From an uncultured Planctomycetales bacterium (GTDB taxonomy: Bacteria > Omnitrophota > Gorgyraeia > Zapsychrales > JANLHA01), in assembly GCA_964489065.1 (NCBI GenBank), contig CAZAXH010000004.1, positions 15,181-79,180 on the forward strand: DNA of 64,000 nucleotides, written 5' to 3'. Numbering within the stretch: position 1 is the stretch's first letter; each line of letters opens with the position of its first letter. The translations under genes and the position numbers were made by a program. The notes beneath the pieces are model-generated. The model was not told the DNA's origin and did not search any database. It saw only the letters and a program-made list of their open reading frames with translations. Positions 5,317 through 12,837 of the stretch are shown in pieces.

Positions 5317-6948
5317 CTACTCGGACAACTTAACGATCACGCCGTTTTTACGCGCTTGCATAAAAGCGTGTTTCATAAATACCAACCCTATAACAAGATA
5401 AACAATAACTAACGTGAACCCCTTCCAAAGTACATGCCGGAGAACCGGCTCAAAGCCAAAACTTTGCCGAAAATATTCCAGGAAATATGTGATAGGGATG
5501 CCTTGCGCGCAATAGTAAAAAAATTTCGGCAATGTATTAATAGGATAATAAATCCCGCAGACCAGCATGAAAAGATACGCAAACATCCAGGCCGTTATTT
5601 CCGCTTTCTGGCCAAAACAAAGCAGAAGATAACACACAAGTGTTCCCAAAAGAAGCGCAGAGCCGAAGATCCCCAACAAAAAGATCCCGGTCACGGATAA
5701 AGACGGGAAGTGGAATCCGAAAAAACCCATGGCAGCACAGCCCAAGATCCCGAAAATAATCACTCCTCTGACAATGCCGATCACCCAGGACCCGAAAAGA
5801 TGCTCGCTGATCCCCACCGGCGTCAGGAAGGTGTGCTTTAAACTTTTGGCCCACACCTCATACAAGAGGCTGTAGGCGACATCCAACTGTGTGACCTGTA
5901 AAATGCCCGCAGTCATTGCGCCCGTGATAATAAAAGCGAGCGCCCGTTCTTCCATCTGCAGAAAATCCCCCATAAGCCCGATCGAGATCAAGCTGACGAT
6001 CGGCCAGAACACCAGTTCCATAAAAGCAAAAAAATTCCTGATCGCGTAAAGCATATTCCGGTACGTAAACGCAAAACAGCTGTTCAACCACTTGGTCGCA
6101 TCCCCGGCAAGCGGGCGCGGTCCAGCGCGTATTTCCCGCCGGCTCAAGACTTCGGTCGCCTCCGGCTGCGGCGGGGAGGCCGTGATCGGCTCTGCTATCT
6201 TGCCGGCCAGGTCAATAAAAACATCTTCCAAATCCTTCTTGCCCTGCCGTGCCTTTAATTCATCCGGAGTCGCCAGCCGGATAAGGCGCCCCTCTTTGAG
6301 AAAGGCAATCCGCTGGCACATCTTTTCCGCTTCCGGCATATAATGAGTTGTCAGCAAAATCGTCGCGCCCGTCTTCTCATAAATATCCAAAATCAGCCGG
6401 CGGATTTTAACCGCCACATCCGGATCAAACCCTACAGTCGGCTCATCAAGAAAAATAATCTTAGGGTCGTTGATCAGGCACTTGGCCAAGGCGAGCTTCT
6501 GCTTGGTCCCGCTGGAGAGTTCGTCAAAACGAAGCCGCGCGGCCTGTCCCAGTCCAAACATGTCAATCAGGGACGCCACGCGCTGTTTTAAAATTTTCCC
6601 CTTAAGGTTATACAACCGGCCGTAAAAAAACAAATTTTCTTCCAGGGTTAAACTCCAGGGGAAATTGGGGTGCCCGGAACACATATTAAAACTCTGCCGC
6701 AATTCGGAATAATGGGCCGGAACCAGTTGTTTTTCCAGCATCGTGACCGTTCCGCTGTCGGGCAAAAGCAAGGTGGAAAGGATGTTTAACAACGTCGTCT
6801 TGCCCGCGCCATTCGGCCCCAGGACCCCTAAAATTTCCCCCTCCCGGATATCCAGGGAAACATGATCCAGAGCTTTAATGCGCACATGTTTTCCCGCCTG
6901 AGAAACAAATGTCTTGCTGATATTGTTAACGGAAATCAACGTTTTCAT
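5317..6948 (-). CDS. Fused ABC transporter: N-terminal ATPase plus C-terminal ABC-2-type permease
   Basis: Walker A (GPNGAGKTT). ABC signature (LSSGTKQKLALA). Walker B (IIFLDEP). The C-terminal half has about 6 TM helices of ABC-2 permease type. Confidence 0.85.
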   Translation of the reverse strand: MKTLISVNNISKTFVSQAGKHVRIKALDHVSLDIREGEILGVLGPNGAGKTTLLNILSTLLLPDSGTVTMLEKQLVPAHYSELRQSFNMCSGHPNFPWSLTLEENLFFYGRLYNLKGKILKQRVASLIDMFGLGQAARLRFDELSSGTKQKLALAKCLINDPKIIFLDEPTVGFDPDVAVKIRRLILDIYEKTGATILLTTHYMPEAEKMCQRIAFLKEGRLIRLATPDELKARQGKKDLEDVFIDLAGKIAEPITASPPQPEATEVLSRREIRAGPRPLAGDATKWLNSCFAFTYRNMLYAIRNFFAFMELVFWPIVSLISIGLMGDFLQMEERALAFIITGAMTAGILQVTQLDVAYSLLYEVWAKSLKHTFLTPVGISEHLFGSWVIGIVRGVIIFGILGCAAMGFFGFHFPSLSVTGIFLLGIFGSALLLGTLVCYLLLCFGQKAEITAWMFAYLFMLVCGIYYPINTLPKFFYYCAQGIPITYFLEYFRQSFGFEPVLRHVLWKGFTLVIVYLVIGLVFMKHAFMQARKNGVIVKLSE

Positions 6949-7966: not shown

Positions 7967-9294
7967 GCACCCACCTCCACCGGTTTATGCTGCAGAAGCT
8001 CCGCATACCCGACCTGCCGCCAGTACAGCGGGCAGCCGCCGTTGCAGACGGCTAGGTCTTCACACGCCTGGCATTGCTCGTGAGCGAAACGTTTGCGCTG
8101 AAAATATTGAAAAGCCGGGCCGGCCCACAACTCCCGGAAACGGCCCTGCCTATCCAGAATATTTCCCATAGGCAGAGGGAAACTGGAACACGGCAGGATA
8201 TCCCCATTCGGGGCGATGCTAAGCAACCCGTCACAGGCCGCGCATCCCCGGTTCCCCAAGCCATGCACAATCGGATTAAAAATGCATAACGGCGTGGGGG
8301 AATACCACATAAATTCCAGCCCCTGCGCGACAGCTTCGCGCTGAATATCCAAAACAACCGGGCCGATATCGGAATACCGGACCAGCACCTCTCCCAAATG
8401 CGCGGCCGCCGACCCTTCGGGCATAAGCAAGTTCATAGAAAATTTATTAAAGCCCTCCTCACGCACCAAGGCCAGAACCGCGTTCAAATGATCTTTGTTC
8501 AGGGCAGAAATAGTTGTGTTGGTGTGCACCCGGATCTTCGCGTCCCGCAAGGCTCTCAACCCAACCAGGGTCTTCGCAAAGGCCCCAGGAGAACGGACAA
8601 TCCGGTCATGCAGGCGCGCGTCCGCGGCCTCCAGGCTGACCTGGGCGGAATCCAGCCCCGCGGCTTTTAAAGTGGCCGCCAAGGCGGGCGTGACCAACGT
8701 CCCATTGGTAATGAGATTCGTCCACATTTTTAACGACTTGGCGAACCGTACCAGTTCTGGCAAATCCGGCCGGAGCGTGGGTTCCCCACCGGTAAAGCTG
8801 ACGGACGGCACTTCGGCCTCTTCCCGGATCACGATCAACACACGTTTCAGCTGATCAAGCGAGCATTCCTCCGCCCGGGTATCCTTGCGGCAACCGCACC
8901 CCGCATAGCAAAACTGGCAGGCCAGGTTGCACCGGTACGTGACCGCGATCTCGCTTAAAACCGGCAGGGTGTTAAACGGAAGTTTGAAAGGATACCGCTC
9001 GACCGCTTTACGGCCGTCCCGTTCATGATAACAGCCTTTAAAGAGCGCCATGATATCACAAAAAAAATAATGCAGGTCCCGGGCGACCCCCTCTTTATCC
9101 GGATACCGGTCCACGACCGTATAAATACTGTTTCCCCCCAAAAGTGTTTTCAAAACAGACACTCCCGAAGCGTTGATTTTATGCGCCTCGTTGGGAATCT
9201 TGATGAGCAAGTGATCATGCTCCCGCACGTGGATATACGGAGAAACCCGTTTGATATATTCGTCAACCCACCGGATGTTGGCATAATATTCCAT
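7963..9294 (-). CDS. Radical SAM enzyme with C-terminal SPASM domain and about 120-aa N-terminal extension (maturase-like)
   Basis: CNLACQFCYAG (CxxxCxxC). C-terminal Cys cluster (CAACDGLL...ILPCS...CQACEDLAVCNGGCP), typical of a SPASM/twitch auxiliary Fe-S domain. Start reassigned to MEYYANIRW, with a GGAG RBS 11 nt after the stop of the upstream gene. The ORF-track start at 9411 would overlap the upstream coding repeat. Confidence 0.85.
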   Translation of the reverse strand: MEYYANIRWVDEYIKRVSPYIHVREHDHLLIKIPNEAHKINASGVSVLKTLLGGNSIYTVVDRYPDKEGVARDLHYFFCDIMALFKGCYHERDGRKAVERYPFKLPFNTLPVLSEIAVTYRCNLACQFCYAGCGCRKDTRAEECSLDQLKRVLIVIREEAEVPSVSFTGGEPTLRPDLPELVRFAKSLKMWTNLITNGTLVTPALAATLKAAGLDSAQVSLEAADARLHDRIVRSPGAFAKTLVGLRALRDAKIRVHTNTTISALNKDHLNAVLALVREEGFNKFSMNLLMPEGSAAAHLGEVLVRYSDIGPVVLDIQREAVAQGLEFMWYSPTPLCIFNPIVHGLGNRGCAACDGLLSIAPNGDILPCSSFPLPMGNILDRQGRFRELWAGPAFQYFQRKRFAHEQCQACEDLAVCNGGCPLYWRQVGYAELLQHKPVEVGA

Positions 9295-9305
9295 GGCAGA
9301 CTCCG

Positions 9306-10988
9306 TTAATGCCCGCTGCTCACGCATGCCCCATGACAGGCCCCGTGGCAGGCGGAATGACACGCGGAATGGCAGGCGGAATGACACGCAGAATGGCACG
9401 CGTCGTGGCAAACATTCTGCAAAAACGGCCCTTCATAACAAAGCGAGGAATTCCGGAAAGAGGAAAACCCTTCCTTGACCTGGGGCGCGCTCACCTCAAG
9501 CGCCCGTCCGACGTCCTGGCTCCGGCGGTAATAATCCCGGTCATGATAATACATCCGGCCGTAATAATGGTGATAATATCCGTCCCAATAATACCCGGCA
9601 TCCGTTTCCTGTTGGGGGTTTTGTTTCTCCTGTTGCAGGATGGCGTCCATACGCTGTTTGTAATACGCTTTTGTGGCGTCCACATCGCAATCCCAGATTT
9701 TTTGCTCAAGCCCCGCGGCCATGGTATGGAAAAGGTCATTGATAAATCCCTGCGGGATATTCCCGGACATATCAATCGCGTTTAAAATATTATTTTCATA
9801 AGGGTCATCCCCACCCGCCGCGCCTGAAACCCGCTCGACCTTCAGCGGATCATGGCTGATCATCTTAAGGAGGCCTTTGCGTTCAAGATTCTGGATCATC
9901 AAGCCGGCCAATGTCCCCAAAGGGATATCCAGCAGAAGCCCTGCCTCCAACGCCGTCAGGTCCTTGTTGATTTTCCCGTCCTTGCGGAACGACCCCACCT
10001 GAATTTTCGGAGGCACCCATTCGTCCCCATCCCAACGGATCGGAGCGATGCCGTCCTGAGCCGATAGCATGGACACATGCTTTCTCGTCATCATTAAAAA
10101 CGGAAAAAGAAAAAAGACAACGCCTCCGAACAGCAGCAGCCCCACCAGACCGCCGGCGGAAAGCGGCACCACCGCCAGGACACTCCCGGGGAAGTACCGG
10201 TTGAAAATATAATTTTCTTCTGCCTTCCGGAATCCGGGGGTATCCGCCCAGGGTTGGGGAGCAGCCATGGTCGTGAGATTAAAATATTTCGCGTCGAGAT
10301 ACGTCTGAATCTGAAAATGATACCGTGAGGGCAAATCATCACGGTGAAAGCGGACCGTGAACACCGGATTCCCTTGCGCGTTGGTCGCCGCCGGATAATC
10401 GATCTTATAGCGCTGATTGACATACTTTTCGGTCAAAAAGTTAACGGCGGACAGGTCCTGGGGGGAAACTTCAGGCGTGTTCATAACGACAGGGTAATGA
10501 ACGGTTACCGTTTCATGCTCCAGGGCGTCACTCCACTGAACCGGGGCCCAGTTAAAAACCGCTAACCGGCCGTGCGGGCTTTCGGTCAGGACGACATGGC
10601 CGCTCTCCTGTAAATCAGTTTCATAATTAAAACGGTAGGTAATCTCTCCGTCATGAAAAGCCTGCCCTCCCGCCAACACGATATCATATTTAGTCGACGA
10701 CAAGTATGTAATATCAAGGGAATACTGCGTGCCGTTCTCGTCAACGGCGTGCGCGTCCAGATCATTGAACCGGGGCACCCCGGCAAAACCTTCAAAATAA
10801 AACCCATGCAGGTCAGCCGCCCGGCAGGCCCAACGGACCGCATAGGAAACCCGGGCTTTCCCATCCGGGTCCAAGACCACATCCACCTCAACCCAGCGCA
10901 TTTTAAATGACCCGCACCAGGCTGGAGCAGCCAGGCTGATGAGAAATATCAGCGTTATGAGGGGAAAAATTGTCTTTTTCTTAAACAT
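9306..10988 (-). CDS. DUF2207-like membrane protein with a C-terminal Tyr/His-rich segment and a (C-H-x-A)x7 repeat tail
   Basis: Signal peptide. About 250-aa extracytoplasmic domain. TM (VLAVVPLSAGGLVGLLLFGGVVFFLFPFLMM). A C-terminal cytoplasmic region ending YYWDGYYHHYYGRMYYHDRDYY...CHDACHSACHSACHSACHSACHGACHGACVSSGH. Confidence 0.7.
   Translation of the reverse strand: MFKKKTIFPLITLIFLISLAAPAWCGSFKMRWVEVDVVLDPDGKARVSYAVRWACRAADLHGFYFEGFAGVPRFNDLDAHAVDENGTQYSLDITYLSSTKYDIVLAGGQAFHDGEITYRFNYETDLQESGHVVLTESPHGRLAVFNWAPVQWSDALEHETVTVHYPVVMNTPEVSPQDLSAVNFLTEKYVNQRYKIDYPAATNAQGNPVFTVRFHRDDLPSRYHFQIQTYLDAKYFNLTTMAAPQPWADTPGFRKAEENYIFNRYFPGSVLAVVPLSAGGLVGLLLFGGVVFFLFPFLMMTRKHVSMLSAQDGIAPIRWDGDEWVPPKIQVGSFRKDGKINKDLTALEAGLLLDIPLGTLAGLMIQNLERKGLLKMISHDPLKVERVSGAAGGDDPYENNILNAIDMSGNIPQGFINDLFHTMAAGLEQKIWDCDVDATKAYYKQRMDAILQQEKQNPQQETDAGYYWDGYYHHYYGRMYYHDRDYYRRSQDVGRALEVSAPQVKEGFSSFRNSSLCYEGPFLQNVCHDACHSACHSACHSACHSACHGACHGACVSSGH
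9318..9404. repeat. 12-nt tandem repeat (about 7 units, consensus aatgRcaSgcRg on the + strand) encoding the CHxA repeats
   Basis: Seen directly: ...aatgacacgcgg aatggcaggcgg aatgacacgcag aatggcacgcgt... Confidence 0.8.
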
Positions 10989-11130
10989 AAAAATTTATAA
11001 GGGGATAATAGTAAAAATCATTATAATAACTCTTCTGCCGGGTGTCCAGAATCCAAATATAAATTAATGTCTATCAAAAGACAAAAAATAACGGGTCTGA
11101 AGTGTCTCCGGGAACCGCTTCTATTATTTT

Positions 11131-11190: not shown

Positions 11191-12837
11191 ATGCGGATTA
11201 CTTTTGTAGCTCTTGGCTGGGAGCAACTCAGCATTTCCATGCTGACCGCCCTAGCGAAACTCGACGGACATGAAGTGAGCCTTGCGTTCAGTCCCGGATT
11301 GTTCCATGACCGCTATAATCTGCGTGTCCCGTTTTTAGCCGCCATCTTCGATGACCGGACCCGGGTCTTAAAAACAATCGCCCAACAAAAGCCGGATGTC
11401 CTAGCCTTTTCAGCGATGACCGGGACCTATCAGTGGCTGCTGGGAATCGCGCGAGACGCCAAACGCCTGAACCCGAACGTCAAAGTCCTGTTCGGAGGCG
11501 TGCACGCCTCCGCCGTTCCGGACCGGGTCCTTCAACAAAAACCGGTCGATTTTGTTTGCGTCGGGGAGGGAGATATGGCTTTCCGGCTTATTTTGCAGGC
11601 TATCGCCCGCAAAAATTTTTCCGACCCGATCCCCAACACACGCTACAAAACGCCCGACGGAACGATTATCCGTGGCGCACAAACCGGTTTTATCCAGGAT
11701 TTAGACAGCCTCCCGGGCTTTGACAAATCCCTCTGGGAAGACCATATCCGTCTGGGAGACATTTATTTCACCATGGCTTCCCGGGGCTGCCCGTTCCGCT
11801 GCACCTACTGTTTTAATAGTTTCTTCAGTCAATTAGGCGGGCCCGACAAGACAAAATATGTCCGCCAGCGCAGCGCCGGACACATGTTAGAGGAACTGCG
11901 TTACGCCCGCCGGAGATATCATTTGCGGTTGGTCGAATTTGAAGACGACATTTTCACGTTTAACAAAAAATGGCTGAAAGACTTTCTGGACCAGTATAAA
12001 AAGGAGATCGGGATTCCTTTTCAATGCCTCTCCCACCCTTCCTTTATGGATGACGACGTTATCCGGTGGCTTTCCGAAGCCGGCTGCCGGTTTGTCCAAA
12101 TGGGGATCCAAAGCGCGGACGAAGACTTCAAAAACCGGATGATCAAGCGTTACGAAAAGACCCGGCATATTGAGCGTGTCATGCAAACAATGCGTAAATA
12201 TCATGTTGAACTGAAAGTCGACCACATGTTTGGGCTTCCGGAAGAACCCGTGTCAGCCCAGGAAAGCGCCCGGGAGCTCTATGCCAGAATCCCGCCCTAC
12301 CGGATTCAGACATTCTGGATGAATTACTTCCCGGGCACCGAAATGACAGAATACGCCCTGACAAACGGGCTCCTGTCTCCAAAAGAGGTCGAAAATCTTA
12401 AGGACGGAAATCAGCCTGATTTCTACCGCAACAGTTCGAGGGTCATGGCCCCGGAAAACCGAAAGCTCTACGCCGCCTATGAAACCATATTCAAACTTCT
12501 GCCGATTGTTCCCCCCGCCCTCAGGGAACACCTCCTGGCCCGATCCTTCCGGGAACTCCCCAAATTCCTGAATTCCTGGATCAGTTTTATGGCCGATGTT
12601 GTCAGCGGGTTATGGAGAAGAAATCCTGATCATATCGGTTACGCGAAATACTATCTTTATCATATGACCCGGTTTATCCTGGCAAAATGCGGGCGCACAA
12701 TGCCCCCGGCCACCCGGACGCGCGGGCACGAACGTTCTTTCCCCCGCCTCCGGCAAAACTCAAATCCAGTTCCAGTCCGGGGGGGCGAGCAAGCTGTTTC
12801 TTCGGAACCGGCCCTTATTTTCCGCAAAGGGAATTAA
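11191..12837 (+). CDS. B12-binding (class B) radical SAM enzyme
   Basis: N-terminal cobalamin-binding Rossmann-like region. Radical SAM core with ASRGCPFRCTYCFNS (CxxxCxxC). About 550 aa, typical for class B rSAM methyltransferase-like enzymes. Confidence 0.8.
   Translation: MRITFVALGWEQLSISMLTALAKLDGHEVSLAFSPGLFHDRYNLRVPFLAAIFDDRTRVLKTIAQQKPDVLAFSAMTGTYQWLLGIARDAKRLNPNVKVLFGGVHASAVPDRVLQQKPVDFVCVGEGDMAFRLILQAIARKNFSDPIPNTRYKTPDGTIIRGAQTGFIQDLDSLPGFDKSLWEDHIRLGDIYFTMASRGCPFRCTYCFNSFFSQLGGPDKTKYVRQRSAGHMLEELRYARRRYHLRLVEFEDDIFTFNKKWLKDFLDQYKKEIGIPFQCLSHPSFMDDDVIRWLSEAGCRFVQMGIQSADEDFKNRMIKRYEKTRHIERVMQTMRKYHVELKVDHMFGLPEEPVSAQESARELYARIPPYRIQTFWMNYFPGTEMTEYALTNGLLSPKEVENLKDGNQPDFYRNSSRVMAPENRKLYAAYETIFKLLPIVPPALREHLLARSFRELPKFLNSWISFMADVVSGLWRRNPDHIGYAKYYLYHMTRFILAKCGRTMPPATRTRGHERSFPRLRQNSNPVPVRGGEQAVSSEPALIFRKGN

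Follow-up and report, generated by a model that had tools for sequence, protein, structure and literature searches.

A Cys-His repeat tail on a DUF2207-like membrane protein as a proposed tethered substrate of an adjoining radical SAM enzyme

We analyzed a 64,000-nucleotide (nt) stretch of contig CAZAXH010000004.1 from an uncultured Planctomycetales bacterium (assembly GCA_964489065.1, positions 15,181 to 79,180 of the forward strand; hereafter the window), in which a 12-nt tandem repeat closes the coding region of a membrane protein (gene A) directly upstream of a gene for a radical S-adenosylmethionine (rSAM) enzyme with a SPASM domain (gene B), itself followed by a third gene (gene C). The repeat encodes the peptide motif C-(H-x-A-C)7, which is under stabilizing selection at seven to eight units and is no contingency locus. 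The most likely reading of the tail is that of a tethered substrate of B, namely a core peptide that stays on its own protein. In its full form, to which we assign a probability of roughly 60%, B would dock on A via a PqqD-like domain and introduce one Cys thioether per unit, giving a rigid, His-studded tail that works with C, and the array would be a selected peptide motif and not a slippage locus. We favor the substrate reading because the tail is strictly conserved, its array has a fixed length, it is predicted to lie in the cytoplasm, and it invariably adjoins the gene for an rSAM/SPASM enzyme with a putative PqqD-like domain. An earlier reading of the window from its letters (the original prediction) had taken the repeat for a potential length-variable coding microsatellite and a plausible source of population heterogeneity in the number of modification sites.

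Results

The repeat array and its surroundings

Gene A ends with seven in-frame 12-nt units and an extra Cys codon (Table 1). On the minus strand, units 1 to 4 read TGC CAC GAC GCG, TGC CAT TCT GCG, TGT CAT TCC GCC and TGC CAT TCC GCG, and units 5 to 7 read TGT CAT TCC GCC, TGC CAC GGG GCC and TGT CAT GGG GCA. A scan with the three-unit pattern (TGYCAYNNNGCN)x3 gave five overlapping minus-strand matches between 9328 and 9410 and none in 100 shuffles, and Tandem Repeats Finder (TRF) reported a period of 12 at 9352-9402 (82% matches) and a period of 24 at 9346-9402 (93%). The 12-nt in-frame tandem repeat of the original prediction is therefore real, and reading the open reading frame (ORF) confirmed that it lies at the very 3' end of the gene and codes for the (CHxA)n tail. 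The tight coupling to the rSAM gene also stands, with an 11-nt gap that holds a GGAG ribosome-binding site. Several details need correction, as follows: First, the array occupies 9327-9410, and the coordinates 9318-9404 given before were off by about 6-9 nt. Second, measured from the array end at 9324, the ATG of gene B is 29 nt and the GGAG 19 nt away, not 25 nt and 11 nt. Third, the units had been called near-identical, which is an overstatement, as their mean pairwise DNA identity in the window is 69% and only units 2-5 agree at 10-12 of 12 positions. Folding of 9280-9420 (minus strand) revealed nothing unusual (z = -0.41) that would suggest an mRNA structure joining the array to the ribosome-binding site of gene B.

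The segment just upstream of the array is conserved as well; in the alignment of the A family, C517 within this segment is invariant, and G520 and F522 are nearly so. A low-complexity tract rich in Tyr, His, Arg and Asp, YYWDGYYHHYYGRMYYHDRDYY (9520-9568, minus-strand coding), precedes the array by about 40 residues; according to TRF it forms an imperfect period-18 repeat, and it is present but variable in orthologues. A 158-amino-acid (aa) ORF (9309-9785, plus strand) runs antisense to the tail region; we do not take it as evidence of a gene, because comparable ORFs at other loci turn up only where they shadow genes A and B, which are conserved.

Table 1 Features of the A-B-C cassette and its neighbors in the window
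Feature	Position	Strand	Description
Gene A, 560 aa	9306-10988	minus	Signal peptide, DUF2207-like beta-sandwich, one transmembrane (TM) segment, winged-helix-like and helical domain, Tyr/His-rich linker, (CHxA)7C tail
Pre-repeat segment FSSFRNSSLCYEGPFLQNV	9411-9467	minus	Conserved; candidate leader-like recognition element for the maturase
Seven in-frame 12-nt units (TGY CAY NNN GCN)	9327-9410	minus	Peptide CHDA CHSA CHSA CHSA CHSA CHGA CHGA; units 1-7 run from 9410 to 9327
Closing Cys codon, VSSGH, TAA stop	9326-9324, 9323-9309, 9308-9306	minus	DNA TGC GTG AGC AGC GGG CAT TAA
GGAG ribosome-binding site of gene B	9301-9304	minus	6 nt ahead of the ATG at 9294
Gene B, 443 aa	7963-9294	minus	PqqD-like N-terminal domain, rSAM core, SPASM domain; starts 11 nt past the stop of A
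PqqD/RiPP recognition element (RRE)-like region of B, residues ~35-83	9046-9192	minus	Assigned by homology to orthologues
rSAM cluster motif of B, C122-x3-C126-x2-C129	8908-8931	minus	Invariant alignment columns
SPASM domain of B, residues 351-421	8032-8244	minus	Motifs CAAC...Gx4C and Cx2Cx5Cx3C
Gene C, 318 aa	7010-7966	minus	Four TM helices and cytoplasmic beta-rich domain; 4-nt overlap with the end of B
Fused ATP-binding cassette (ABC) ATPase and ABC-2 permease gene	5317-6948	minus	Downstream of gene C
B12-binding rSAM gene	11191-12837	plus	Divergent from gene A; best matches HpnJ/ApyD-like, far below cut-offs

The unit number is nearly constant across orthologues

Relatives of A were found in 367 species-representative genomes and 392 metagenome contigs, and the best 80 of each were fetched. 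The window belongs to a Candidatus Omnitrophota lineage. The closest relatives of the window protein are encoded on JAGOJP010000091, JAKQKX010000069 and OY759724 (96%, 91% and 71% identity, respectively); the exact protein is present in Logan run SRR15237810 and was not found in a table of 15 billion proteins. The cassette loci span Omnitrophota, Elusimicrobiota, Planctomycetota, Hydrogenedentota, Armatimonadota, Aminicenantes and others. One record carrying the otherwise bacterial cassette (L067) is labeled as a Bathyarchaeia archaeon, which may reflect binning contamination or gene transfer, and another (L014) has a run of N within the repeat array (a masked stretch or an assembly gap).

The 154 complete orthologous tails, which come from at least 10 phyla, contain three C[HY]xA units in two cases, five in three, six in one, seven in 72, eight in 73, nine in two and eleven in one; that is, 145 of them (94%) hold seven or eight units. 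At their third position the units carry S, D, G, A, N or T. That C and A are invariant follows in part from the regular expression used, in which an interruption would shorten the run, and a break in the C-H-x-A pattern was seen essentially once (L139). An extra Cys closes all 154 arrays and is followed by VSxG(x)H or R. Since the arrays start with a Cys and the extra Cys closes them, every His is followed by a Cys at a distance of three residues (H-x-A-C).

The unit count tracks phylogeny, because the Fitch minimum on a neighbor-joining tree of 151 tips was at least 20 count changes against 57±3 after shuffling, and all 29 pairs of proteins with at least 98% identity had equal counts. The agreement was 39 of 41 pairs at 90-98% identity and 59 of 69 at 80-90%. 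Within 90% clusters the tails were identical, including a three-unit allele that 13 contigs of several sources share and a five-unit allele of two assemblies. The relatives of the window at 96, 91 and 71% identity (assemblies L001, L002/L082 and L003/L083) have seven units each, and the sole differences between their arrays and that of the window are synonymous changes that arose independently in single units. Whole-unit gains and losses (12 or 24 nt) are real but rare: L024 with five units and L047 with seven, whose proteins are 93% identical, differ by a clean deletion of 24 nt between two blocks of this length that are nearly identical, and the array of L132 contains duplicated blocks. The in-frame gain or loss of units envisaged by the original prediction has thus taken place over evolution, giving counts from 3 to 11. 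The same prediction had named a fixed repeat count in all reads and orthologues as one thing that would refute it; the count that we found in orthologues is nearly, although not strictly, fixed.

The periodic DNA follows from the periodic peptide

The microsatellite explanation holds that the array is prone to slippage and that the unit number fluctuates within populations, thereby varying the number of modification sites. It draws on the head-to-tail arrangement of the units, on a 24-nt duplication that is identical at 23 of 24 positions (units 2-3 versus units 4-5), on the orthologue range and on the L024/L047 pair. However, the near-uniform counts and their equality among near-identical proteins and throughout the 90% clusters speak against it, as do the closest relatives of the window, which have changed their units only synonymously.

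The nucleotide sequences of the units point the same way. For 129 distinct arrays, codons were redrawn for the unchanged peptide according to the usage of the locus itself; the observed mean pairwise DNA identity of the units was 73.0%, and the expected one was also 73.0%. The periodicity of the peptide therefore accounts for that of the DNA, and we rejected a signature of concerted evolution or slippage, since there was no excess of unit identity over the codon-usage expectation. Adjacent units shared the identical codon even less often than expected (0.456 versus 0.514, with a nominal z of -6.4 that ignores shared ancestry), whereas units two apart shared codons slightly more often (0.536 versus 0.518 expected). 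The deficit between neighbors might stem from an ancestral 24-nt period or from selection that disfavors perfect tandem repeats; if anything, neighboring units are de-homogenized. The longest exact in-register self-match slightly exceeded the expectation over all arrays (16.3 nt versus 14.2 nt) and did so marginally in the window (20 nt versus 12±3 nt; p~0.04), which is what the microsatellite explanation can claim at the DNA level, and duplication or conversion has left a trace solely at the 24-nt scale. We regard that explanation as very improbable, and the population heterogeneity that it was to account for lacks support both in the counts and in the codons. The near-constant count, the rarity of indels and the absence of homogenization among unit nucleotides together indicate that the array is a selected peptide motif and is not driven by slippage.

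Gene A encodes a bitopic membrane protein with a predicted cytoplasmic tail

The AlphaFold model of A (mean predicted local distance difference test score, pLDDT, of 78) consists of a signal helix, a beta-sandwich from residue 27 to 232 (pLDDT>90), a single long TM helix (278-314), and a winged-helix-like element (346-386) followed by helices. Because the signal peptide and the single TM helix precede the tail, the (CHxA)7C tail is predicted to face the cytoplasm, which would place it where rSAM enzymes act. The label DUF2207 in the original prediction needs a qualification: the window protein itself scores 16.1 bits (E 0.014) against Pfam DUF2207 (PF09972), below the gathering score of 24.4, and in an alignment of the window protein with 15 homologues, 10 of the 16 sequences match PF09972 at E<=0.01, with the best at 3.5e-7. 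No NCBIfam profile matched A. Foldseek gave no clue to its identity beyond a generic beta-sandwich, such as that of the M1 aminopeptidase N-domain or of ribophorin I. A promoter-like site, TGGACA-17-TATAAT (11 of 12 positions; 11020-11048, minus strand), lies some 30 nt upstream of gene A and is a consensus match only.

DUF2207 has been described as a domain of unknown function (PMC10457818, PMC12631010). Like the canonical DUF2207 proteins, A has an N-terminal extracytoplasmic beta-sandwich and then a TM segment; unlike them, it falls below the gathering score, carries a Cys-His tail and has an rSAM partner. Canonical DUF2207 proteins are often paired with LemA, whereas no LemA gene is conserved near the cassette.

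Gene B encodes an rSAM/SPASM enzyme with a putative PqqD-like N-terminus

Gene B matches two Pfam domains above the cut-off, Radical_SAM (93 bits) and SPASM (40.6 bits, residues 351-412). Its seven SPASM cysteines (C351, C354, C369, C408, C411, C417 and C421) are invariant in the alignment, and its first 110 residues are strongly conserved within the family. The PqqD-like region was assigned through orthologues: P0160 and P0161 score above the gathering score for PqqD at residues 36-84, the domain matches 13 of 40 orthologues overall, and the N-terminus of the window protein aligns to P0161 without gaps at 62% identity. The remote relatives of B with solved structures in the PDB are GDGT-MAS, PqqE, SkfB, SuiB, CteB and anSME. 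Against the NCBIfam maturase families, B missed every curated cut-off, in all cases by far; the peptide maturases among them gave 111.9 bits versus a cut-off of 381 for PqqE, 110.4 versus 400 for GeoRSP, and 99.2 versus 400 for the ACGX family TIGR04340. HxsC and SCIFF were among the other families whose cut-offs B did not reach.

An alternative in-frame ATG at 9325-9327 (minus strand), overlapping both the closing Cys codon and the last unit, would give a 454-aa product; this is the form that was called for P0146 and for the Logan record L001. The start at 9294 is preferred because it has the GGAG, and because orthologues with larger gaps between A and B cannot share the extension.

Genes A, B and C form a conserved cassette

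All-against-all clustering of the ORFs in the 80 genome loci revealed A in 79, B in 78 and C in 76 loci as the only conserved genes, the other recurrent clusters being antisense shadow ORFs or lineage-specific neighbors. B adjoins A in each of the 78 genome loci with DNA downstream, and tblastn showed that the order A-B-C is kept in every locus with enough downstream DNA, the exceptions being truncations at contig ends only. No protease, exporter or LemA gene was conserved around the cassette in this clustering. Gene C has no match in Pfam or NCBIfam, and its 195 homologues are all annotated as 'hypothetical'; its structure model (pLDDT 83) has no match in the PDB at E<=0.001, the best being weak YbjN-like matches.

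Two neighboring genes in the window were considered as parts of the cassette and rejected. The ABC transporter gene downstream of gene C was seen only in the closest relatives (L001-L003) and was missing in the remaining 77 genome loci. The B12-binding rSAM gene adjoins the cassette only in L001-L004 and is probably unrelated to it.

The tail as a tethered substrate of B

The mechanism that we propose would proceed as follows: First, the PqqD-like domain of B would dock on FxxFRxxxxCYEGxF, the conserved segment that immediately precedes the array. Second, B would modify the units in turn, most probably with one Cys-derived thioether cross-link each, for example within an H-x-A-C ring. At last, a rigid His-studded tail would result at the inner face of the membrane and may act jointly with C. 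The single cross-link per unit is suggested by analogy with PapB.

Other repeat-tailed proteins lend this proposal independent support by analogy. A search with the last 45 residues of A against 1.84 billion representative proteins returned only 37 matches, among which, besides fragments of the A family, there were unrelated (CHxx)n tails ending in CHGSRGWR, (CYxx)n arrays and (C[EQ]xx)n arrays. Both (CHxx)n-tailed proteins that we looked up, P0285 and P0301, adjoin rSAM/SPASM genes of different subfamilies: P0285 lies beside two such genes (L162, 366-4195), and P0301 beside one that overlaps the start of the target gene (L164, 382-2451). The (CHxx)n tails of P0285, P0301 and P0302 end in CHGSRGWR or CHGSRARR and look like a second, separate Cys-His-repeat target family. 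P0276, P0292, P0294 and P0279 have long (CYxx)n or (C[EQ]xx)n arrays, with 37-42% identity to the tail query, and are otherwise unrelated proteins. The small neighbors at other CHxx-tail loci were compared with C as possible kin and proved unrelated.

Some observations weigh against the tethered-substrate reading. The Pfam PqqD search of the window B alone did not detect the domain directly. The top NCBIfam scores of B, slightly above those of the peptide maturases, are for AhbD (140.8 bits, cut-off 500) and NirJ2 (134 bits). A 560-aa membrane protein without the leader, protease and exporter logic is unusual as a precursor for systems of the type that makes peptides ribosomally synthesized and then modified post-translationally (RiPPs). 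The tail has a pLDDT below 40 in the AlphaFold model of A, the z-values of the codon test are uncorrected for shared ancestry, and we infer the thioether, its acceptor residue and the docking site alike. Finally, the Cys/His array could instead be a set of metal ligands.

In that alternative, the eight Cys and seven His residues would bind a metal, an Fe-S cluster or a tetrapyrrole, and B would make or attach the cofactor. The invariance of Cys and His, the small or polar residues at the third position of the unit and the cassette without a protease or exporter all count in its favor; the sequence can also be read as repeated, overlapping CxxxCH motifs like variant haem c sites, and AhbD, the top match of B together with NirJ2, is a haem b synthase. 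However, these scores are far under the cut-offs (141 versus 500 bits for AhbD) and correspond to generic SPASM similarity, and the B orthologues have a PqqD-like domain of the kind that recognizes peptides. Haem is attached covalently in the periplasm, whereas the predicted location of the tail is the cytoplasm, so that the tail would not lie in the periplasmic segment expected of a c-type haem site (CXnCH); its motifs, moreover, overlap. Tyr, Glu or Gln replaces His at the second position in the other Cxxx-repeat arrays retrieved, so a substrate fits better than a ligand set. We consider the ligand array unlikely.

A further alternative is that the tail is a true RiPP core, cleaved after modification and exported as a free peptide via the ABC transporter encoded downstream in this lineage. 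In the window, as in its closest relatives, the transporter gene does follow the cassette, but its absence from the remaining genome loci and the lack of a conserved protease argue against such a route. The 500-aa body of A, with its extracytoplasmic and cytoplasmic domains, is conserved along with the tail and would be wasteful as a leader. A cleaved and exported product is, in our estimate, quite improbable, and the tethered substrate remains the reading that we prefer.

Comparison with known systems

The Cxxx-repeat targets of TIGR04117 (Syntroph_Cxxx) and PF27846 (tSAM_targ_Cxxx_rpt) are among the nearest in appearance, with a Cys recurring every four residues close to the C-terminus and an adjoining rSAM/SPASM gene. 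They were defined in silico and, to our knowledge, their chemistry has not been established. The A orthologue P0013 bears a precomputed Pfam label of PF27846; the window tail matches TIGR04117 weakly and is not a member, since against its cut-off of 50 bits the 53-aa tail scores 15.3 bits (E 0.016) and the C-terminal 264 aa score 11.3 bits. In contrast to these targets, which are proteins of ~100 aa, the array described here is a strict C-H-x-A repeat of seven to eight units with a CVSxGH end, its carrier is a 560-aa bitopic DUF2207-like membrane protein, and a conserved four-TM partner, C, takes the place of any known accessory protein.

PapB, an enzyme of the RRE-rSAM-SPASM type, equips each of the six CX3D motifs of PapA/freyrasin with one thioether (PMC9413430). 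The proposed action of B would resemble this in that one enzyme makes many identical small rings on one substrate. Unlike in PapA, which is a small leader-bearing peptide, the Asp/Glu acceptor is absent here or variable at the third position; B is no member of the PapB family, and PapB was not among its best 25 NCBIfam matches.

In NxxC peptides, the enzyme NxxcB forms a beta-thioether inside a four-residue motif, and the H-x-A-C spacing is that of NxxC-type rings. A motif of four residues ending in Cys is common to both, and H-x-A-C could be ringed likewise; the acceptor here would be His, not Asn, and seven tandem copies sit on a membrane protein. Membership of B in the NxxcB family, which was named in PMC11851443, was checked by NCBIfam only. 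The ACGX system (TIGR04340) similarly combines a four-residue Ala-Cys repeat with an rSAM/SPASM enzyme, and B scores 99 bits against it, under the 400-bit cut-off; here the repeat is A-C-H-x instead of A-C-G-x, and the substrate is no small peptide.

With contingency loci and coding simple-sequence repeats, the array shares frame-keeping tandem DNA units and rare unit indels. It differs from them in its imperfect units, in a unit identity that is fully explained by the peptide and in the lack of count variation among near-identical genomes. We found no paper on this cassette in the literature, and none that joins DUF2207 or 'CXXX repeat' with radical SAM or that contains CHSACHSACH.

Discussion

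The pairing of Cxxx-repeat targets with rSAM/SPASM maturases has already been catalogued in silico, and the multi-ring chemistry of the PapB type is established. What is new here is a strict C-H-x-A unit at seven to eight copies on a 560-aa DUF2207-like bitopic protein, a conserved four-TM partner, the lack of export or cleavage genes, and a broad spread in uncultured anaerobic phyla. The near-constant unit number is the opposite of the variability first proposed; as a variable microsatellite, the repeat would be an ordinary finding and a largely wrong one. The comparison of observed unit identity with the codon-usage expectation is a reusable test that separates peptide constraint from slippage in coding tandem repeats. 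The strict count of seven to eight and the invariant C, H and A positions make the tail a very clean target for biochemistry, in a compact three-gene cassette two of whose proteins have no assigned function.

A broader and more tentative possibility is that A-B-C is a widespread uncharacterized system of hundreds of species from anaerobic phyla that are mostly uncultured, in which the rSAM enzyme would rebuild the cytoplasmic tail into a fixed ladder of seven to eight Cys-His-derived rings that acts in place and is not secreted. If B acts on the tail of a full-size membrane protein, RiPP-type chemistry would extend to a tethered, non-secreted substrate. A tethered RiPP-like modification of this sort, if true, may provide the extracytoplasmic domain with a linked coupling module, for example for metal, redox or signals.

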